Origin: Candidatus Wukongarchaeum yapensis
Lineage (GTDB): Archaea > Asgardarchaeota > Wukongarchaeia > Wukongarchaeales > Wukongarchaeaceae
Direction of reading: 5' to 3'
DNA length: 7,695 nt
NCBI GenBank assembly: GCA_016840425.1
Contig: JAEOSI010000103.1
Coordinates: 1 to 7,695 of the forward strand
The translations under genes and the position numbers were made by a program. The notes below the pieces were generated by a model. The model ran no database searches and was not told the origin of the DNA. It was given only the letters and a program-made list of their open reading frames with translations. How positions within the stretch are numbered: position 1 is the stretch's first letter; the number at the start of each line of letters is the position of its first letter. This document shows, in pieces, positions 1-7,695 of the stretch.

Positions 1-236
1 GCAGACATCGTGGATATCCCGATGATGCTTTCTTCCGGGAATGTTTCTTCAAATTTTTTCATCTTTTCGAAGAGTTTTTTTGAGGATATTACTTCTTTTT
101 TGTGGGGGAACATTATGAGGAGGAGTTCTTCTCTTTGCCATAGTTTTCCAAAGATGTTCTCTTCTTGGAAATTGTTATCTGGAAATGTTTTGGGTAAAAG
201 TTTTGTTTGGATTGTGGTTGTTGACACTTTTTCCAT
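1..236 (-). CDS. 5' part of a gene truncated by the left edge; possible FIST N-terminal (signal-transduction) domain protein
   Basis: Not in the ORF track. From ATG at 236-234 the frame is open to the window edge: MEKVSTTTIQTKLLPKTFPDNNFQEENIFGKLWQREELLLIMFPHKKEVISSKKLFEKMKKFEETFPEESIIGISTMS. The segment 'LLLIMFP...FEETFPEESIIGIST' resembles the FIST_N pattern (lvlvF...l...fp...iiGcST). The family call is tentative; the CDS itself is likely. Confidence 0.55.
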   Translation of the reverse strand, partial: MEKVSTTTIQTKLLPKTFPDNNFQEENIFGKLWQREELLLIMFPHKKEVISSKKLFEKMKKFEETFPEESIIGISTMS

Positions 237-283
237 CTCGAGCAAATATTTTGAAATCAAATAAATACTTTTCCGATTTAGAC

Positions 284-319
284 TCAATAGAACGGGGAAT
301 ATCTATATAGTTCTATTGA
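284..319 (-). promoter_or_regulatory. Perfect 10-bp inverted repeat overlapping a TATA-like element upstream of the left-edge gene
   Basis: TCAATAGAAC (284-293) / GTTCTATTGA (310-319) with a 16-nt spacer. CTATATAG (303-310) lies in the spacer and shares its last base with the right arm. The element is 48-83 nt upstream of the ATG at 236. Confidence 0.5.
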
Positions 320-473
320 CTAATCTTATAGGTTACTTTCTTTAATTTTGATTAAAAATAAAGAGGGAGAGGGGGTAAAAAGTGAACGATAGAACATTAA
401 AGATCTATGACGCTCTTTTTAATGTTTTAAAGTTAAAGACCACGCTATTAACTAAGATAAAAAATTTTAACTT

Positions 474-497
474 AAAAAATCAACTTTAAAGGTTGAT
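474..497 (-). terminator. Candidate terminator of the TPR gene (hairpin plus T-run)
   Basis: The minus strand reads ATCAAC-CTTTAAA-GTTGAT followed by TTTTT, starting 15 nt after the TPR stop at 512. Confidence 0.4.
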
Positions 498-511
498 CAA
501 AGGAAATTTTA

Positions 512-1504
512 CTAATTGTTAGATTTTTTCTTTATCTGGAGGAAGCCTGCTTTTTTGATCTTTGGTTCTAAAGATGGGTCAAGATCAATTGCACGTGCAA
601 AGCAGTCCATAGCTTGATTTTTTTGGTTTAATGTGTAAAGTGTTACGCCCCTGTTAAGCCAAGCTTTGGTGTATTGTGGGTCTATCTTTAAAGCTTGATT
701 GAAACATTCTAATGCTTTTTCAAACTCGCCTACGTGATAGAAGGTTACTCCTTTATCAATTAACGCTTTTTTGTCGTTGGGATTAAGTTTTAAGGCTCGG
801 TTGAAACATTTTAAGGATTCTTTTAATTCTCCCATGATTTGAAGTATTTCCCCTTTGTTTACGAGAGCTTCAACAAAGTTAGGTTCGATTTCTAAAGCCC
901 TATTAAAGCATTTTAACGCTTCTTCTAATCTTCCAACCTTGTGGAGTACTATACCCTTGTTGAACCATGATTCGCTGATATTTTCATCAATTTCTATCGC
1001 TTTGTTAAAAGAGTTTAAGGCCTCCTCATTTAAGCTCAACAAATGCAAAACGTTTCCACGATTATTCCAAATATCGGGGTTTACGGGATCTAAATTTAAG
1101 GCATGATCATAGCATTTTAGGGATTCATCAAGCATGCCTTTTAACCTTAAAGTTGCGCCTTTGTTTATCCAAGCTTGAGGAATGTCATACTTTATTTTCA
1201 GAACATGATCATAGCATTTTAGGGATTCATCAAATTTTCCCAAAATTCTTAGGGCATTACCTCTGTTAATCCAAGCTTCTATCAAGTTTTCATCGATTTT
1301 TAAGGCTTTATCGTAGCATTCTAACGCTTCTTTTACGTTGCCCAAAGCACGCAATGCCATTCCAAAGTTTGACCAAGCGTGTCCTGAATTGGGGTTTATC
1401 TTAAGGGCTTTTGAATAGCATTCTAAGGCTTCCTCATACTTTCCTTGAGCGTAAAGATGGTTTCCTTTTTGAAGTAATTCTTCAATATTTTCAGGCGCTG
1501 ACAT
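512..1504 (-). CDS. Tetratricopeptide repeat (TPR)-only protein, 9 tandem 34-aa repeats
   Basis: 330 aa with exact 34-aa periodicity of the TPR consensus (W/L-x-N-K/R-G...L...G...EEAL-x-C-Y/F-x-x-A-L-x-I-x-P) from residue ~7 to ~312. No other domain is visible. Confidence 0.95.
   Translation of the reverse strand: MSAPENIEELLQKGNHLYAQGKYEEALECYSKALKINPNSGHAWSNFGMALRALGNVKEALECYDKALKIDENLIEAWINRGNALRILGKFDESLKCYDHVLKIKYDIPQAWINKGATLRLKGMLDESLKCYDHALNLDPVNPDIWNNRGNVLHLLSLNEEALNSFNKAIEIDENISESWFNKGIVLHKVGRLEEALKCFNRALEIEPNFVEALVNKGEILQIMGELKESLKCFNRALKLNPNDKKALIDKGVTFYHVGEFEKALECFNQALKIDPQYTKAWLNRGVTLYTLNQKNQAMDCFARAIDLDPSLEPKIKKAGFLQIKKKSNN
1102..1233. repeat. Identical 30-bp direct repeat at one TPR period (102 bp)
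   Basis: CATGATCATAGCATTTTAGGGATTCATCAA occurs at 1102-1131 and 1204-1233. It encodes DESLKCYDH in TPR repeats 4 and 3. Confidence 0.95.
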
Positions 1505-1512
1505 TTTTCACG

Positions 1513-1529
1513 AACCTTTTAAAAAGGTT
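1513..1529. promoter_or_regulatory. Perfect palindrome AACCTTTT-A-AAAAGGTT just upstream of the TPR start
   Basis: 8-bp arms (1513-1520 / 1522-1529) with a 1-nt centre, 9-25 nt upstream of the ATG at 1504, in the region between the divergent TPR and DUF1858 genes. Confidence 0.45.
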
Positions 1530-1703
1530 ATAGTTATTTTTAGGTTCTCCTCCTATTAGTGGTTTATTAAATTGTTATCATAGTTTTTGGTATTTTTTTT
1601 GTAATTAAGTAACCCCTCAGTTAGCTAAAATATATAAAATAAGATGAGGTTTATTTATGTGACTTAATTACTCTATGAAAGTTAAAAAAGGTGTGATATA
1701 AAA

Positions 1704-1931
1704 ATGGTTGAAAAAATTGACGAAAAAATCACAAAAGATATGCTCATTGGAGAAGTAATAGGAAAATATCCTGAAACAATCAAGGTTTTTCACAGTCATG
1801 GTTTTGGATGTATAGGATGTGTTATAGCAGATTTCGAAACCATAGAAGAAGGAGCAGAAGCTCACGGAATGGATGTTGAAGGTTTAATAAAAGACCTAAA
1901 TGAGGCTGTTAAAAATAAAAAGAATAATTAA
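1704..1931 (+). CDS. DUF1858 domain protein (hybrid-cluster-protein-associated redox disulfide domain), canonical copy A
   Basis: 75 aa with the family pattern ITKDMLIGEVIGKYPET..VF..HGFGCIGC....ETIEEGAEAHGMDVE.LI.DLN, including a CxxC. SD-like AGGTGTGA at 1689-1696. Confidence 0.9.
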   Translation: MVEKIDEKITKDMLIGEVIGKYPETIKVFHSHGFGCIGCVIADFETIEEGAEAHGMDVEGLIKDLNEAVKNKKNN

Positions 1932-2271
1932 AAACTATAAGCTATTTAGAAAACCTTTTTCTCAAAAAGGAGTAGGTAGGTGGTTTTTGTTGGAAGATAA
2001 AATAACAGCAGATTGGAACATTAACGATATCGTAGAAGAACTTGGAGAAGAAGGAATTAAAGTACTTGATAAATATGATATTTGTGTGACCTGTTTTGTC
2101 TTCCGAGGGATAAAGCTTGGGACCTTAGCAGTTGTCCGGGAGATTGAATTAGATTCCCTAATAGAAGATTTAAATGAAGCTATTAAAAATAAAAAGGATA
2201 ACTGAAAAACTATAGGCTATTTAGAAAACCTTTTTCTAAAAAATAAGGGATCAGGTAGGCTGTTTTTATTG
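1885..2271 (+). repeat. Two-copy ~110-bp direct repeat (1885-1992 and 2159-2271) covering gene 3' end, intergenic region and next start codon
   Basis: The core AAAAACTATA(A/G)GCTATTTAGAAAACCTTTTTCT at 1930-1962 and 2205-2237 is 32/33 identical. The preceding coding tails (1885-1929 vs 2159-2203) are 38/45 identical. Both copies end in AGGTAGG-NN-GTTTTT-N-TTG. Confidence 0.9.
1990..2205 (+). CDS. Divergent DUF1858-like CxxC protein, copy B (71 aa; start re-assigned from 1900 to TTG 1990)
   Basis: MEDKITADWNINDIVEELGEEGIKVLDKYDICVTCF...LIEDLNEAIKNKKDN aligns with copy A. The TTG at 1990 is in exactly the same position as the TTG of copy C within the duplicated leader, behind AGGTAGG (1974-1980). 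Confidence 0.8.
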   Translation: MEDKITADWNINDIVEELGEEGIKVLDKYDICVTCFVFRGIKLGTLAVVREIELDSLIEDLNEAIKNKKDN

Positions 2272-2577
2272 ACTGATAAAGTTACAAAGGATTGGAATCT
2301 TCACAGGATCTTTGAAGAATTTGGAGACGACGGATTAGAGATAATGATTAAATATGATATTTGTTTGGATTGTTTCATTTCTAGAGGCTTAAAACTTGAC
2401 GCGGTTGCCTATACTAGAAATATAGACTTAAACGCCCTATTAGAAGACTTGAATAAAATTGCGGAAAAGAAAAAAAAGTTGAGGAAAAACATTAGCCTTC
2501 CTATTTTTTATTTTTCTAATTATAAGCTTTTAAAGTTAAAAAAAGAGGGAACATTTAGAAATTTCTTATTTGTTTAA
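2269..2577 (+). CDS. Divergent DUF1858-like CxxC protein, copy C; C-terminal ~32 aa probably a read-through caused by an A8 run
   Basis: TTG start behind AGGTAGG (2253-2259). It has KYDICLDCF and 34/71 identities to copy B by ungapped hand alignment. Homology ends near residue 70, at the A8 run (2470-2477). Confidence 0.75.
   Translation: MTDKVTKDWNLHRIFEEFGDDGLEIMIKYDICLDCFISRGLKLDAVAYTRNIDLNALLEDLNKIAEKKKKLRKNISLPIFYFSNYKLLKLKKEGTFRNFLFV
2500..2516 (+). terminator. T-rich archaeal terminator-like tract after the DUF1858 cluster
   Basis: CCTATTTTTTATTTTTC, 18 nt after the out-of-frame TGA at 2480-2482. The same CCTATTTTTT motif occurs on the minus strand within 7551-7564. Confidence 0.45.
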
Positions 2578-3170
2578 GAATAGTATTTTATGTTGCTTCT
2601 ATCGAAGTTTTCTACGAGTTCTACTAGACCCATTGTGGGAGGAGTCCAAGAGGCGTCAGGGTATACTAGGTTCGGTAGAAATTTGACTATGTTTTTAGCC
2701 ATCTTCGTTGCTATGTGATTTTGTCCGAAAAGTTTGTGACTTATTTCGTAGGCTATTTTTCTCGTCATTTCTTCGTTTGTCATGCCCAAGCTGTGTATGT
2801 ATTCGTGTAGGAGCACATGGAAAACGTATGGTTTGTAGAGGGTAGTGTTTGTCTCTCTTATTCTTCTTAGTGGTGTTTTGTTCATCACGATTATGTTTGA
2901 GCCTACAGGGTAGAAAGCTCCTATGAAGCCTCCTTGTGGTGCTCCTAAGTCGCTTAGACCTAAGTTAAGACCGGCCCTACCGAAACCTAAGACTTTTCGT
3001 ACACCTCGTTTTACTAATTCAAATATGTCTGAGAGACCTTTTGTCTTTTCTAGTCTTTCGGCAAACGTTTTTCCAGCTATTGTCATGCCTTCTACATTTT
3101 CTATTTTCCGGTTTTCGATTTCTTTTCTTTCTTCTTTTATTTCAAAGGGAAATTTTTCTTCTAGTTTCAT
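2574..3170 (-). CDS. Conserved archaeal-type HExxH zinc metallopeptidase-like protein (zincin)
   Basis: Contains GAFYPVGSNIIVMN...YVFHVLLHEYIHSLGMTNEE, i.e. an edge strand, HExxH and a downstream Glu. No signal peptide or TM segment is visible. The ATG at 3170 is preferred because the GTGAT just upstream looks like an SD; the ORF track uses GTG 3179. Confidence 0.75.
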   Translation of the reverse strand: MKLEEKFPFEIKEERKEIENRKIENVEGMTIAGKTFAERLEKTKGLSDIFELVKRGVRKVLGFGRAGLNLGLSDLGAPQGGFIGAFYPVGSNIIVMNKTPLRRIRETNTTLYKPYVFHVLLHEYIHSLGMTNEEMTRKIAYEISHKLFGQNHIATKMAKNIVKFLPNLVYPDASWTPPTMGLVELVENFDRSNIKYYS

Positions 3171-3216
3171 GTCTATCACGTTGATTATTTTTGGCGATTA
3201 ATTAACGAATAGTAAT

Positions 3217-3238
3217 CTATATATAGTTTACTATATAG
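3217..3238 (-). promoter_or_regulatory. TATA-like promoter elements for the HExxH gene
   Basis: The minus strand reads CTATATAG-TAAA-CTATATATAG: two self-complementary TATA-like boxes, the second preceded by an A-rich BRE-like stretch, 47-68 nt upstream of ATG 3170. Confidence 0.5.
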
Positions 3239-3285
3239 GGCGTTTTAAAAACTTCTCCCCCCTAAAAGGGCATTTTCATAGAACT

Positions 3286-4395
3286 TTAATTCTTAGCAAT
3301 CCCTATAAAGTCCGTTATCTGTTTCTGTCTTCTTTTCCCTTTAACAAAATTTGAGACTTTAACGCCTACCCTTCTTGCCTCAAGTTCAGTCTCGTTAATA
3401 ATTTTTTCAAAGAGTTCTTTTACAGTTTTTTTGAGAGATTCCAAGTCATTCGTAGGGCTTTTGAGGGTTTTAGATCGGGTGCGCATGTTCAGATCTGTCG
3501 TAATCATGATTATTCCGATAGTTTTGAAACTAAGACTTTGTTTTACAAGCCTTTCATGAACTTCTTCACACAAATGATCTGCTTCTTCTAAGATAACTTT
3601 CAAATCTCGTGTATTTTCATGCAAAGTATGGATTCTGCTTATGGATTCAGCTTCACCTCTTTCTTGAACAAGGTTATCGTCTATTCCCATCGCGGCATTG
3701 TGGAAATAAGCGCCCATACTTTTCCCGAAAAGTGTTATCAATTTCTGCATGTCATACTTTGCTAGGTCGCCGATAGTTTTTATTTCCAAATTTTCCATTT
3801 TCTTGACTGTTTTTCTTCCAACGCCGATAAGGCGCTTGACTGGCAGGGGTGATAAAAAGCTTTCAACTTCCTCAGGCTTGACTATAGTTAAACCGTCAGG
3901 TTTTTGGACATCGGCAGCAATTTTTGCTATAAGCTTGTTTGGCCCGATGCCTATGGAACAAGTGAGTTTTTGTTGGGCTTTAATCTCTTTTTTTATTTTT
4001 TGGGCTAGTTCTTTTGCTTCTTCAAAGTTTCCTTTAACTTTTTGACTCACGTCCAAGTATGCTTCGTCTATTCCAGCTTGTTGGAAACGATCTGCATAAC
4101 TCCTCAAAATTGTCATTATTTTCTTTGAAATTTCTGAGTAAAACTTGTGGTCTACGGGTAGGAATACAGCATCCTTATCCTCTAGTTTCTTTTTCGCCGA
4201 ATAGATAGGGATCCCAGATTTCACGCCATATTCTCTAGCTATGTAGTTTGCAGTGCTTACAGCTCCACTCTCTTCACTACGACCAGAATACACACATACA
4301 ACCACAGACTTGTCCTTGATGGATGAATTCCTCATCTCCTCGCATTGGGCGAAGAAGTAATCCAAGTCCACCAACATTATGACCCTTGACTGCAA
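3286..4395 (-). CDS. dinB: DNA polymerase IV (Y-family, DinB/Dbh/Dpo4-like)
   Basis: Motif I VDLDYFFAQCEE (catalytic Asp, Phe steric gate), STANYIAREYGVKSGIP, GIDEAYLD (catalytic DE), TCSIGIGPNKLIAKIAADVQKPDG, HhH LIGVGRKT, a little-finger domain, and a C-terminal PIP box QKQITDFI (3304-3327). TTG start with SD-like AAGGGGT upstream. Confidence 0.97.
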   Translation of the reverse strand: MQSRVIMLVDLDYFFAQCEEMRNSSIKDKSVVVCVYSGRSEESGAVSTANYIAREYGVKSGIPIYSAKKKLEDKDAVFLPVDHKFYSEISKKIMTILRSYADRFQQAGIDEAYLDVSQKVKGNFEEAKELAQKIKKEIKAQQKLTCSIGIGPNKLIAKIAADVQKPDGLTIVKPEEVESFLSPLPVKRLIGVGRKTVKKMENLEIKTIGDLAKYDMQKLITLFGKSMGAYFHNAAMGIDDNLVQERGEAESISRIHTLHENTRDLKVILEEADHLCEEVHERLVKQSLSFKTIGIIMITTDLNMRTRSKTLKSPTNDLESLKKTVKELFEKIINETELEARRVGVKVSNFVKGKRRQKQITDFIGIAKN

Positions 4396-4410
4396 AAATT
4401 GCTACCCCTT

Positions 4411-4434
4411 AAATGAAAACAACCGGTTTCATTT
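4411..4434. promoter_or_regulatory. Inverted repeat AAATGAAA-N8-TTTCATTT upstream of dinB
   Basis: Arms at 4411-4418 and 4427-4434, with a nested perfect palindrome AACCGGTT (4421-4428), 16-39 nt upstream of the dinB start. Confidence 0.5.
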
Positions 4435-4481
4435 TCTTAAAAAAACCGACACAGACCCCATTCTATCTAACTTCTTTATCA

Positions 4482-5009
4482 TTATTTTTCTTCTATTAAA
4501 GCCGATATTATTTCTCGGCAAAAGGCGGGTAAATCCTTGGGAACTCGAGAAGTTATGAGGTTTCCGTCTCTTACTACTTCTTGGTCGACGTAAGCTGCTC
4601 CTGCGTTTTCCACGTCGTCTTTTATGCTCATAAAACAGGTTACTGTGCGATCTTTTAATATTTTAGCAGAGACCAAGACTGAAGCTGCATGACAAATAGC
4701 TCCCACAACCTTCCCCTGTTCAAAGGCTTCTCTGACGAATTTTACGACAGTAGGGTATCTTCTAAGGCGGTCAGGGGCAATGCCTCCAGGGATTAAAACA
4801 GCGTCAAAATCCTTCGCATCTACCTCTTTTGCACTTTTATCAACTTTAACCTCATACCCATGTTTACTCTGATAAACATCATTTGTTCCAGACCCTACAA
4901 CCACAACTTCTGCCCCTTCCTCCTTCATTCGAAGAAGGGGATACCAAAGCTCAAGATCCTCATAACCGTTCTCTGCAAGGACGGCAATGAACTTACCTTT
5001 CAAGCTCAT
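4482..5009 (-). CDS. pfpI: PfpI/DJ-1 family protein (type 1 glutamine amidotransferase-like; intracellular protease/glyoxalase-deglycase)
   Basis: GYEDLEL (conserved Glu), DAVLIPGGIAPDRLR, nucleophile elbow GAICHAA, and VVRDGNLITSRVPKDLPAF. Clear SD GAGGTG at 5023-5018. Confidence 0.95.
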   Translation of the reverse strand: MSLKGKFIAVLAENGYEDLELWYPLLRMKEEGAEVVVVGSGTNDVYQSKHGYEVKVDKSAKEVDAKDFDAVLIPGGIAPDRLRRYPTVVKFVREAFEQGKVVGAICHAASVLVSAKILKDRTVTCFMSIKDDVENAGAAYVDQEVVRDGNLITSRVPKDLPAFCREIISALIEEK

Positions 5010-5127
5010 ACCAAAAACACCTCTTAACTTTCTAATAATTTCAGGAAGGAATAAGGCCTCATTCTTTCAACCATTAAAGGAAAATTTTTTGAGGATTACT
5101 TTTAAAGAACTCTCTCTCCTATTTAAA

Positions 5128-5152
5128 AATCCTTATTAAATAATCCTTATTA
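5128..5152. repeat. Tandem 11-bp direct repeat AATCCTTATTA in the region between the divergent pfpI and small genes
   Basis: Copies at 5128-5138 and 5142-5152 (14-bp period). They overlap a TATA-like TTATTAAA at 5133-5140. Confidence 0.55.
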
Positions 5153-5177
5153 TTAAAAGGAAAAGGAGGTTGTTTCC

Positions 5178-5423
5178 TTGAGTAAGCCTGTTGAAAGTTC
5201 CTATATAAGAATCTCAGACAGTCGAGGGATATCCATAGCGCGTTGGGGTAAGCGCAAGGTTAAAGGAGAAGAATTTAGTGGCAACATAAGCATCCAAGAA
5301 GTACGCATATTAGAGGATGGAAAAAGAGAGTATGGCGAAACACTTTATGTACCCGCAGGCGCCCTTGCAAACCTCATAATGGAACTCCAAAGAATGTATA
5401 TCAAACTAAAAGAAACCGAATAA
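5178..5423 (+). CDS. Small 81-aa protein, possible PC4/Whirly-like single-stranded nucleic-acid-binding fold
   Basis: Strong SD GGAGGT (5165-5170) before the TTG. Alternating beta-type segments (ISIARW, NISIQEVR, LEDGKREYGETLYVP) are followed by an amphipathic C-terminal helix (ALANLIMELQRMYIKL). The CDS is likely; the fold call is an inference. Confidence 0.7.
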   Translation: MSKPVESSYIRISDSRGISIARWGKRKVKGEEFSGNISIQEVRILEDGKREYGETLYVPAGALANLIMELQRMYIKLKETE

Positions 5424-5488
5424 AAATTGGACAGTTAGTAAATTGAAACCAGAATAAGGGAAAGTAAAAGGGCAGAGATAGGGCCTTA

Positions 5489-7396
5489 TTATTCTTTTAG
5501 GGCTATTTGTGTTTTTGTTTTTGCGATTAAGATAGGGTCTTTGATGATTGGTTCCATCTCCGTTTTTATTTTTTCTAAGTTTTCGTAGCTATTGTGAAAG
5601 AATATTGTTTTTCTTGGGTTGATGGTTTTTATTGTGTTTATTACTTGATCTTTGTCTGGGTGTAAGTTCGTTATTTTATCCGAGTGTTTTAAGTTAAAGA
5701 TTTGGGCTTTTATGTCTATGGTGGTGATTTCTAACTCTTCCTCTTCCGCGCCTTCTCCTTTTCTTGACTCTTTTTTCTTTTTTTCTTTTTTCATTTTTAG
5801 TTTTTTTAGGGCGAGGGGTGTGTATTTTACTGTTATTTTTTCAGTTTTCCCTTGCTCAATTAAGGTTCCTGGTTCTTTCTTTTGCATGCCTGTGAGAACG
5901 ATGAGGTTTTTTTCGTCAGTTCCAAGGTAAAAGAGGAAGGTCATTATGGGGAGGTTGGAAAAGTTGTTTGGTTCGCTTATAATGATGGAGGGGGAGGTTA
6001 TGGCGTTTATGCGGTCGTCTGCTGTTTTTAATTCTCGGACAAGAGGACTTGAAAAAGGATCTGGTTCGTCTAAAATTTTTTCCTGAAAACCTTTACTAAT
6101 GCTTAGCAATCTTGATTTTACACACTTCATACATTCAAAAACTATTGGTTCGGCGTATATTGGGGGGCTTTTTGAAGGATCTGGGTAGTGATCAAAAAAG
6201 GTGGTTATAAGGTCGAGGGATAACCCTAAAGAGTCTGCACCTATGAGGACATTGCCTTTCCGTTTGATTATTCTTTCGGCCTCTTCTAGAAGGGCCTTCT
6301 TAATTTCATCCTTCGGAGCTGTAGATTTATGAGCAAAAGAAGCGTCAAGTATCAAAACATCTATCTCTTTCCTTTCCTCTTTAATCCTGTTGATTGTTTG
6401 AAGGGACCCATCTACAGGAAAATGATCCAAAAGATAGTAGTCCCCCGTATAAAGCACTTTAAAGCCGTTAAGATTTAAGAGAAACATGGCAGAACCCGGT
6501 ATGTGTCCAGCTTTCAGCGCGGTTATCTCCAAAGGCGTCCCTTCACCTTCCCCCTCTTTCTCTTCTTCTTTTTTTGTTCCGCCGATCTGGATCTTTTCAT
6601 CATAAAATGCTGGAACAAAGTACCTAAAAAAGGGTTCAAAAATAGAGTAATCTTTAAAACCGCTCCCTAAAATAGCGAGATCAACGCTCATCGGGGTAGC
6701 AATAATAGGTGCTTGACACCCTTCATCAAATAAAAATTTAAGTGCATAAATGTGATCTAAGTGGGCGTGGGAAACCAAAACTAAATCTATATCGCCGATA
6801 TTAATAGTCTCTTTAATCATTTCTTTTGCTTTTTCTTCGTCAAATCCACAGTCTAAGAGGATGTTTATTTCCCCTGCCTTTAAAAGGAGAGAGTTTTTAC
6901 TCGGACTGCTCATTATAGGTTCAACGGTTATCGGCGTCATAGAATAACTAGAAACCTTTTCGCCTATTTTGCCAAGCAGTTCCTTTCGCTTTTCAATGTC
7001 TGATATTTCTTTGTTGACATAGGCGCTTATCTCGCTTTCTTCCAAGTTTAGAAAAGTAATGTGGGGAAACCATCCGATATATTTCGCTATCTTCCAACGT
7101 CTTTGAAAAATAACATCCTTTTCAGGATCACCAACACTTCTTATAATCAGAATACGATCGTCAGGGTAGGCTACAAACTCCTTAACACTCTCACGGACAT
7201 AATCTTCAAACCCTTTAAGATTTAAGATGAAGTTAATAGCCTCCTTTAAAGGCTTCTGGTCAATAAAATCCCGCCAAAAATGATCTAAAACAGTAAGACG
7301 CTGCCTAACCCTAGAAGTTACACCATAACGAACCTCGCAGCTAAAACCCTCAACTTCTATCCTTTCAACTTTTTTACCCATACATAAACCCGCCAT
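5489..7396 (-). CDS. Metallo-beta-lactamase/beta-CASP nuclease, strongly diverged aCPSF1 (FttA)-like protein
   Basis: ILLDCG (motif 1), SHAHLDH (motif 2, 6752-6769), AGHIPGSA (motif 3), LYTGD (motif 4), ILDAS (A), LHPD (B), FFHNS (C). The N-terminal ~150 aa carry aCPSF1-like remnants IGWFPHI and KRKELLGKIGEKV. An alternative start is ATG 7381. Confidence 0.85.
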   Translation of the reverse strand: MAGLCMGKKVERIEVEGFSCEVRYGVTSRVRQRLTVLDHFWRDFIDQKPLKEAINFILNLKGFEDYVRESVKEFVAYPDDRILIIRSVGDPEKDVIFQRRWKIAKYIGWFPHITFLNLEESEISAYVNKEISDIEKRKELLGKIGEKVSSYSMTPITVEPIMSSPSKNSLLLKAGEINILLDCGFDEEKAKEMIKETINIGDIDLVLVSHAHLDHIYALKFLFDEGCQAPIIATPMSVDLAILGSGFKDYSIFEPFFRYFVPAFYDEKIQIGGTKKEEEKEGEGEGTPLEITALKAGHIPGSAMFLLNLNGFKVLYTGDYYLLDHFPVDGSLQTINRIKEERKEIDVLILDASFAHKSTAPKDEIKKALLEEAERIIKRKGNVLIGADSLGLSLDLITTFFDHYPDPSKSPPIYAEPIVFECMKCVKSRLLSISKGFQEKILDEPDPFSSPLVRELKTADDRINAITSPSIIISEPNNFSNLPIMTFLFYLGTDEKNLIVLTGMQKKEPGTLIEQGKTEKITVKYTPLALKKLKMKKEKKKKESRKGEGAEEEELEITTIDIKAQIFNLKHSDKITNLHPDKDQVINTIKTINPRKTIFFHNSYENLEKIKTEMEPIIKDPILIAKTKTQIALKE

Positions 7397-7550
7397 AAAA
7401 AATCCTTAAACAAAGCTTATTTATTACCAGCAGAGAACCTCTCTGTCCTCAACTTACATCGTCCTAGGAACAGTGTCCAGAATATCTATTTTGAGTAGAG
7501 ATAGATAACTGTTATGCCCATGAGATTTGCCTAGATAGATGGGAATTAAG

Positions 7551-7564
7551 AAAAAAATAGGGGG
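7551..7564 (-). terminator. C-run plus T7 terminator-like tract downstream of the right-edge ORF
   Basis: The minus strand reads CCCCCTATTTTTTT, about 80 nt after the TAA at 7645-7647. Confidence 0.4.
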
Positions 7565-7644
7565 ATTTAAGAACTTAAATATTATTTTTGGGGAATTCTA
7601 AACAAAACTTACAAAAAATAACTTTATCATGGGCCTTTTTTAAA

Positions 7645-7695
7645 TTATAAGAACTTTTCACCTTCAATGTCAATTATTTTCTTAATTTGTTTATT
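7645..7695 (-). CDS. Possible 3' end of a gene entering from the right edge
   Basis: An open frame from the edge reads NKQIKKIIDIEGEKFL-stop. The composition is protein-like, but 16 aa is too short to assign. Confidence 0.4.
   Translation of the reverse strand, partial: NKQIKKIIDIEGEKFL

Follow-up and report, generated by a model that had tools for sequence, protein, structure and literature searches.

The DNA analysed here, referred to as the window, is a 7,695-nt stretch of Candidatus Wukongarchaeum yapensis (assembly GCA_016840425.1, contig JAEOSI010000103.1, positions 1 to 7,695 of the forward strand). The element in question is an open reading frame (ORF) on its minus strand that encodes a protein of 635 aa. 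Public records label the proteins of this family only as 'MBL fold metallo-hydrolase', and the gene calls of identical or near-identical sequences frequently use the alternative start M6 (ATG at 7379-7381), which gives a 630-aa form. A preliminary description of the window had taken the ORF for a remodelled paralogue of aCPSF1 (FttA), the archaeal termination nuclease, with the metal site kept and the RNA-recognition elements eroded. All peptide strings quoted there were located in the ORF. The aCPSF1-like length and layout that it described also hold, as the genome's own aCPSF1 has 637 aa and a KH2-like fold occupies residues 46-117 of the ORF.

A Pfam scan of the ORF returned Lactamase_B (E 3.5e-13, 50 bits). 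The best NCBIfam model was the aCPSF1 equivalog TIGR03675 (E 6.9e-38), with residues 101-594 aligned to model positions 116-613, so that the alignment begins within the last strand of KH2. The score of 130.3 bits (127 bits in the genome search) is below the curated equivalog cut-off of 580.2. Among solved structures the KH-CPSF entries 2ycb and 2xr1 come closest (E ~1e-18), followed by CPSF73, TTHA0252, FttA (9bct) and Cas14. The full-length AlphaFold2 (AF2) model, with a predicted local distance difference test (pLDDT) of 81 and a predicted template modelling score of 0.80, matched more than 50 solved beta-CASP nucleases at E <1e-18. In the Foldseek comparison the FttA/aCPSF1 matches had E values of ~1e-34 over ~700 columns, with CPSF73 behind at ~1e-27. 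The resemblance to aCPSF1 is far above chance. By these models and alignments the protein has a metallo-beta-lactamase fold, modelled with confidence, with an inserted beta-CASP domain and an intact, conserved two-metal active site.

The metal ligands (HAHLDH, GH and GD) and the His residues of motifs B and C had been described as intact, and all seven beta-CASP motifs are indeed present: D182 in motif 1, H210, H212, D214 and H215 in motif 2, H298 in motif 3, D319 in motif 4, D351 in motif A, H579 in motif B and H601 in motif C. In an alignment of eight family sequences, which extends down to 22% identity, the metal ligands are invariant, and so are G108-W109 and a handful of structural residues; at motif A every member has D or E. 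A His in motif C is said, in work attributed to Callebaut et al. in 2002, to mark the RNA-acting beta-CASP members, whereas SNM1 and Artemis carry Val. The RMMBL domain (PF07521), which carries the motif C segment, was found in 10/10 CPSF-type comparison proteins scanned, including the two of the CPSF73 type, and is absent from the ORF and its close relatives P0002-P0006; the motif C His itself is present.

The segments around the ligands were compared using HMMER and BLAST alignments with solved aCPSF1 structures, the genome's own aCPSF1 and group consensus sequences. In these alignments IMSSPSKNS (161-169) faces GGxxEVGRS of aCPSF1, DASFA (within 348-355) faces ESTYG, ADSLGLSLD (387-395) faces AVGRAQE, SEPNNFSN (474-481) faces TSGMLxGG, and TNLHPD (576-581) faces FSGHSD, the last changing the Ser-Gly-His context of motif B. 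Each of the five strings that had been named as replacing an aCPSF1 signature thus stands exactly opposite that signature. The C-terminal motif of aCPSF1, its last ~16 residues, is conserved, forms the dimer interface and is needed for RNA binding and exonuclease activity (PMC3553952). The tail LIAKTKTQIALK had been likened to this motif. The string is there, at residues 623-634, but nothing conserved in the family consensus corresponds to the dimer motif (aPxnlexiRl in the aCPSF1 consensus).

In aCPSF1 two N-terminal KH domains carry RNA-binding GXXG loops (PMC3553952; PMC11616081), and the loops of both KH1 and KH2 contact U-rich RNA (PMC11616081). We modelled the N-terminal region of the ORF from a 25-row alignment (pLDDT 85). 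It starts with a beta-hairpin (10-23), continues with two helices and an alpha-beta-beta-alpha-alpha-beta unit (64-115), and closes with a long linker helix. Among 48,161 chains compared with VIA-align, the top structural match was residues 78-146 (KH2) of the Pyrococcus aCPSF1 structure 3af5_A, with a Z of 6.5 and a root-mean-square deviation of 1.7 A over 64 residues; ribosomal S3, RbfA and NusA, likewise type-II KH proteins, ranked below it. The three leading Foldseek matches of the module were all aCPSF1 structures (E 5e-3, probability 0.96). The hhalign comparison placed residues 47-125 on aCPSF1 70-145, in the same register as KH2 (E 0.007), and the language-model neighbours of residues 1-160 were KH_TffA clusters (score 0.80), which serves as a lead only. 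Taken together, these four modest lines point to a putative degenerate KH region of the aCPSF1 type, and the KH fold looked for in residues 1-155 would be the KH2-like unit at 46-117.

The strings that had been read as remnants of the KH-to-nuclease segment are FVAYPDDRILII (74-85), IGWFPHI (107-113) and KRKELLGKIGEKV (136-148). In the register of the hhalign alignment DPEKDVIFQRR (90-100) sits where aCPSF1 has KPGxxIGKxG, and the GXXG segment is deleted there. The sole GxxG in residues 1-155, GKIG (142-145), is part of the linker helix, which contains a GxxG in aCPSF1 too, and is not a KH loop. The reported loss of the KH GxxG loop is therefore borne out. KH1 is reduced to a helix and the hairpin ERIEVEGFSCEV, the latter aligned with IExEGPxxxVY in the KH1 hairpin of aCPSF1. 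The isoelectric point of the module varies from 5.8 to 10.0 across members, an undecided pointer for nucleic-acid binding.

The ratio of nonsynonymous to synonymous substitution rates against relatives at 77% and 84% identity was 0.15-0.22, with 0.20-0.22 for the N-terminal module and 0.15-0.20 for the core. Both parts are under purifying selection, and the module is not a decaying relic. In a large Asgard family the module occurs twice in tandem per protein (L013:235-2724, P0007, P0145 and P0151). This tandem duplication, along with the purifying selection, argues that the module is functional. At least one of these proteins, that of L013, additionally carries a long insert, rich in Asn and Glu, that separates motif 1 from HxHxDH.

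The host assembly comprises 2.16 Mb in 277 contigs and is 92% complete. Members of the ORF's 90% cluster are labelled Candidatus Wukongarchaeota, a relative at 76% is labelled Hodarchaeota, and the host's canonical aCPSF1 shares 94% identity with its counterpart in a metagenome-assembled genome of Candidatus Hodarchaeota. The labels and the aCPSF1 identity agree that the host is an Asgard archaeon, the case in which the gene had been thought to be of particular note. The canonical aCPSF1 is encoded on another contig of the same genome (L001:1379-3289), has 637 aa and scores 923 bits against TIGR03675, above the cut-off; the ORF is 22% identical to it. Since this canonical copy coexists with an ORF that scores 130 bits, the ORF is an additional copy and not the housekeeping FttA. 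The suggestion that it is too diverged for the housekeeping enzyme and represents a second copy agrees with these scores, and the ORF is not the only gene of this type in its genome. A canonical aCPSF1 above the cut-off was also found in 4/5 other family-positive genomes; none was seen in the fifth assembly, where absence is unproven.

The host's set of beta-CASP genes is enlarged, and other Asgard genomes are similar, with 3-5 copies. Two genes of ~470 aa without KH domains are aCPSF1-like (384 and 346 bits against TIGR03675; C48:7853-9241 and C238:1840-3201) and group together in the tree (support 93). A C-terminal beta-CASP fragment lies at a contig edge (C190:3-380). The canonical aCPSF1 of the host itself reads AFLHDYKY at motif 4, against the consensus YTGDxK, with the Asp kept and Thr-Gly changed to Leu-His.

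Relatives of the ORF were sought in several ways. The close relatives returned by a word-index search have 76-97% identity and 633-637 aa. Two more distant proteins followed, at 33% (571 aa) and 24% (764 aa), and then only generic CPSF-type proteins at ~25%. The whole-genome search of the relatives extended the set to further Asgard families, with members at 36%, 30% and 24% identity, and also gave proteins of 770-845 aa that both halves of the query matched. A search with the ORF alone for related loci among the genome contigs gave no relative, the window's own genome possibly being excluded from it. In a profile search of 1.84 billion representatives the N-terminal module was carried by ~30 clusters at 50% identity, below which came general beta-CASP proteins. 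The hidden Markov model of the module did not match canonical aCPSF1; outside the family and aCPSF1 sets it gave weak matches to P0210 (E 1e-5, partial, covering the GW-strand and linker) and P0229 (E 2e-4).

The module was present in 124/400 Asgard genomes surveyed. One Asgard family accounted for 112 positive genomes among its 135, seven other families were positive in a scattered manner, and several well-sampled families were negative (0/31, 0/22 and 0/19). The named members are all Asgard: Wukong/Hod, Odinarchaeota/Asgardarchaeum, Freyarchaeum deiterrae, Promethearchaeota and Helarchaeota. In the literature searched, the coverage of which is incomplete, no description of an Asgard KH-bearing FttA paralogue was found. 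These proteins form a previously undescribed, fast-evolving and coherent subfamily of CPSF-type beta-CASP nucleases, and to date only Asgard archaea are known to have them.

Within the genus the nuclease gene has small unknown ORFs, a DJ-1/PfpI gene and the gene of a DinB-type polymerase as its neighbours (Table 1). On an Asgardarchaeia-labelled contig, a 198-kb metagenome contig and the Freyarchaeum genome the neighbours are unrelated to those of the host and to each other, and the gene looks like a stand-alone, chromosomal one. A TATA-box-like element, AATAAATAAG, lies 20-29 nt upstream of the first ATG and may serve as the promoter of a leaderless or short-leader mRNA. Metatranscriptome contigs from one library (X20) span positions 5292-6391 and 7087-7310 of the window. 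They are a weak hint of expression, as DNA carry-over is possible, and the uncovered parts are uninformative.

Several features of the surroundings were recorded in their own right. The two Lys/Glu-rich inserts of the ORF occur only in this genus-level clade and are without counterpart in more distant members; one of them is a 15-nt tandem repeat at the DNA level. The 81-aa ORF next to the nuclease gene is convergent with its 3' end and has no Pfam or PADLOC match; in a relative from the same genus its place is taken by a tandem of three small ORFs, with 82, 72 and 82 aa (L015 9913-10667). The adjacent 101-aa and 102-aa ORFs are clearly paralogous and share the pattern DWN...KYDIC..CF..RG.KL...LLEDLN; the matching region of the relative holds four small genes, one with DUF1858 (L015 13370-14322). 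The 201-aa protein contains HEYIH (HExxH) and is probably a small zinc metallopeptidase; its gene adjoins the DinB-type polymerase gene in the relative too. A peak of metagenome contig depth at the polymerase gene (3342-4626) suggests that conserved sequence of other organisms is mapped there.

Table 1. Coordinates of the nuclease ORF, its parts and the neighbouring genes in the window.
Feature	Position	Strand	Basis
Whole ORF, 635 aa and stop codon (5489-5491)	5489..7396	-	ORF read from sequence
N-terminal module, residues 8-117: beta-hairpin, then KH2-like unit ending at invariant G108-W109	7046..7375	-	AF2 models, family HMM (hidden Markov model), alignment, consensus comparison
KH2-like fold, residues 46-117, without GXXG loop	7046..7261	-	Structural comparison, Foldseek, hhalign
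Linker helices, residues 118-155, including KRKELLGKIGEKV; colinear with the KH-to-nuclease linker of aCPSF1	6932..7045	-	Alignments and AF2 model
Metallo-beta-lactamase part a, residues 156-378: motifs 1-4 and motif A	6263..6931	-	Pfam Lactamase_B 3.5e-13, invariant columns
HAHLDH, the HxHxDH zinc-binding motif, residues 210-215	6752..6769	-	Residue positions
Second Lys/Glu-rich insert, residues 272-288, modelled with low confidence	6533..6583	-	Alignment, AF2 model
Beta-CASP insert, ~residues 379-565; DPFSS motif (446-450) kept	5702..6262	-	Pfam Beta-Casp sub-threshold, alignments, Foldseek
Lys/Glu-rich low-complexity insert, residues 531-554, pLDDT <50	5735..5806	-	Alignment, AF2 model
Metallo-beta-lactamase part b, residues 566-635: motif B (H579, TNLHPD), motif C (H601, FFHNS)	5492..5701	-	Alignment
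AATAAATAAG, TATA-box-like element	7416..7425	-	Read from sequence
81-aa ORF	5178..5423	+	
DJ-1/PfpI protein	4482..5009	-	1e-56
Y-family DNA polymerase	3286..4395	-	IMS, 5e-44
201-aa protein with HEYIH	2574..3179	-	Weak Zincin_1 match (E 0.005)
102-aa ORF	2269..2577	+	
101-aa ORF	1900..2205	+	
9-repeat TPR protein	512..1504	-	

We consider it fairly probable that the ORF encodes a catalytically competent two-metal (zinc-type) beta-CASP nuclease of an Asgard FttA-like family, most likely a strongly diverged duplicate of aCPSF1. The origin of the catalytic core was examined in a tree of 79 cores and 422 columns (LG+C20 PMSF, quick search). All 25 rows of the family fall into a single clade (support 100*), but the core branches outside aCPSF1. 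The branch that leads to the clade is 1.25 substitutions per site long and attaches where the CPSF73, bacterial, aCPSF2-like and aCPSF1 groups have their unresolved base. In hhalign the family core gave a score of 385 with aCPSF1, 425 with aCPSF2-like, 410 with bacterial and 331 with CPSF73 proteins; for reference, aCPSF1 scored 875 against aCPSF2-like proteins and 605 against CPSF73. A grouping of the family with CPSF73 in the quick tree had a support of 15 and is neither demonstrated nor rejected. The core is too diverged to carry usable signal or a specific affinity to any CPSF-type group, so descent from aCPSF1 rests on the domain architecture, in which the KH2-like fold, the GW-x-P strand, the linker helix and the core are colinear. 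Of the paralogy to aCPSF1 that had been proposed, the N-terminal architecture stands, while the core does not fall with aCPSF1 in the tree.

The branch length and basal position of the clade and the hhalign scores of its core weigh against this interpretation, and they are joined by several other points. The Pfam scan gave no KH or RMMBL match, and its Beta-Casp score of 24.2 bits is just short of the cut-off of 27.7. A Z of 6.5 is modest for a small common fold, and the hhalign probability for the N-terminal module against KH2 was only 5.6%, which is weak at the sequence level. No conserved partner gene was found across the four lineages examined, which leaves no hint of a pathway. An old independent beta-CASP lineage, whose KH-like N-terminus was gained separately or is a generic alpha/beta fold, would explain why the core is equidistant from the CPSF-type groups and branches outside aCPSF1; KH-like topologies are common, and ribosomal S3, RbfA and NusA stand just below the top match. 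Such an origin is nevertheless unlikely in our view, as the GW-x-P strand, the linker helix and the core follow one another in unbroken colinearity with aCPSF1, the best structural match of the module is aCPSF1 KH2 in the homologous position, and monophyly of the family with aCPSF1 is not rejected in the approximately unbiased (AU) test (p 0.27).

Other alternatives concern the function. Within the genus the gene is two genes away from those of the DinB/Dpo4-type polymerase and the DJ-1/PfpI protein, a distant member lies near a topoisomerase and a uracil-DNA glycosylase, and Pab-aCPSF1 can partly degrade DNA oligonucleotides (PMC3553952). An SNM1/Artemis-like DNA-repair nuclease that works with the neighbouring Y-family polymerase would account for these points. 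It is less likely again, given that the motif C His (H601) is invariant, the neighbourhood is not conserved in the four lineages and the Artemis matches are far weaker than those to CPSF-type proteins. The preliminary description had also raised an analogy to the CPSF73/CPSF100 and IntS11/IntS9 pairs, in which the ORF product would be a regulatory or scaffolding partner that heterodimerises with canonical aCPSF1. The shared length and domain order and the co-occurrence of the two proteins fit such a role, as do the different roles of the protomers in the aCPSF1 dimer (PMC11616081). However, all catalytic ligands are kept across the family, unlike in CPSF100 and IntS9, the C-terminal dimer motif of aCPSF1 (PMC3553952) is without counterpart in the family consensus, and a family missing from most Asgard families is no obligatory partner of a universal protein. 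The analogy thus fares poorly, and we hold a heterodimer to be improbable. A co-fold of the ORF core (156-635) with the core of the genome's own aCPSF1 (175-637) gave a median score of 0.19, where the mark is 0.34, and speaks neither for nor against binding. A defence or CRISPR-associated nuclease like Cas14 of type VII systems can be set aside almost entirely: NF045584 is the second-best NCBIfam match (5.5e-23) and Cas14 structures are among the fold matches, but the NF045584 match reaches 81 bits where the cut-off is 800, the window holds no cas genes, repeat arrays, PADLOC hits or Rfam families, those of CRISPR included, and the gene neighbourhoods vary and resemble housekeeping ones.

The results above establish homology and fold, the conservation of the ligands, the presence of the family alongside FttA, its phyletic range and the selection on it; activity, substrate and role are inferred, for a nuclease derived from aCPSF1. 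A duplication of aCPSF1 followed by strong divergence would have placed the enzyme beside canonical FttA rather than in its stead. It would cleave phosphodiester bonds of a specialised nucleic-acid substrate in a metal-dependent manner. RNA is the likelier substrate than DNA because of the motif C His and the descent from an RNase. The elements behind the behaviour of FttA, namely the U-tract-reading GXXG loops, the GRS, GRAQE, SGMLxGG and FSGH segments at the groove and 5'-phosphate pocket, and the dimer motif, are replaced or lost. The choice of target would be set by the remodelled groove together with the N-terminal module. The KH-derived module would then probably serve in recognition of, or docking to, something other than single-stranded U-rich RNA. 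Since the GXXG loops are gone, the dimer motif is not conserved and the context of motif B is changed, a mere duplication of the U-tract-dependent termination by FttA is unlikely. A more specific proposal, which we rate as quite unlikely, is a second and differently targeted RNA 3'-end-processing or termination activity with a docking KH module, as an archaeal parallel to, or even forerunner of, the split of an FttA-like ancestor into CPSF73 and IntS11 in eukaryotes.

To our knowledge, aCPSF1/FttA has usually been treated as a single, strictly conserved and vertically inherited gene in every archaeon. The ORF shares with aCPSF1/FttA (arCOG00543, TIGR03675; PDB 2ycb, 2xr1, 3af5 and 9bct) the domain order and motifs 1-4 and A-C with the motif C His. 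It differs in a KH1 reduced to a hairpin and helix, a KH2 without GXXG, changed signature contexts and the lack of a conserved dimer motif. Whereas aCPSF1/FttA is universal, the ORF family is found in less than a third of the Asgard genomes surveyed, with the N-terminal module in tandem in one Asgard family. Cas14 (NF045584; PDB 8yhd and 9j9e) is likewise a beta-CASP nuclease of ~600 aa that matches over the core, but its terminal domains differ, and the ORF has no Cas7, Cas5 or CRISPR context. The only described extra archaeal CPSF-type paralogues known to us, which stand beside aCPSF1 with the catalytic motifs kept, are aCPSF1b (Methanococcales) and aCPSF2, which have ~420-470 aa and no N-terminal extension (Phung et al. 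2013, PMC3553952). They are core-only, whereas the 635-aa ORF has an N-terminal region of 155 aa and branches apart from the 420-aa group and the 470-aa copies; the core of aCPSF2 is much nearer to aCPSF1 (hhalign 875) than is that of the ORF family (385).

The eukaryotic CPSF73/CPSF100 and IntS11/IntS9 are paralogue sets from an FttA-like ancestor, and the ORF matches them in fold (E ~1e-27 to 1e-21). They differ in having no KH region and in their C-terminal dimerisation domains (PMC11616081). CPSF100 and IntS9 have lost catalytic ligands that the ORF retains. The ORF family is a separate lineage with the FttA layout and an intact active site in which the specificity elements have all been rebuilt, and a new candidate RNA-processing enzyme of Asgard archaea. 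If active, it would be a natural experiment in retargeting a termination nuclease. The only organisms known to carry the family are the archaea closest to eukaryotes, and in eukaryotes the enzyme has itself been multiplied into CPSF73, CPSF100, IntS11 and IntS9.

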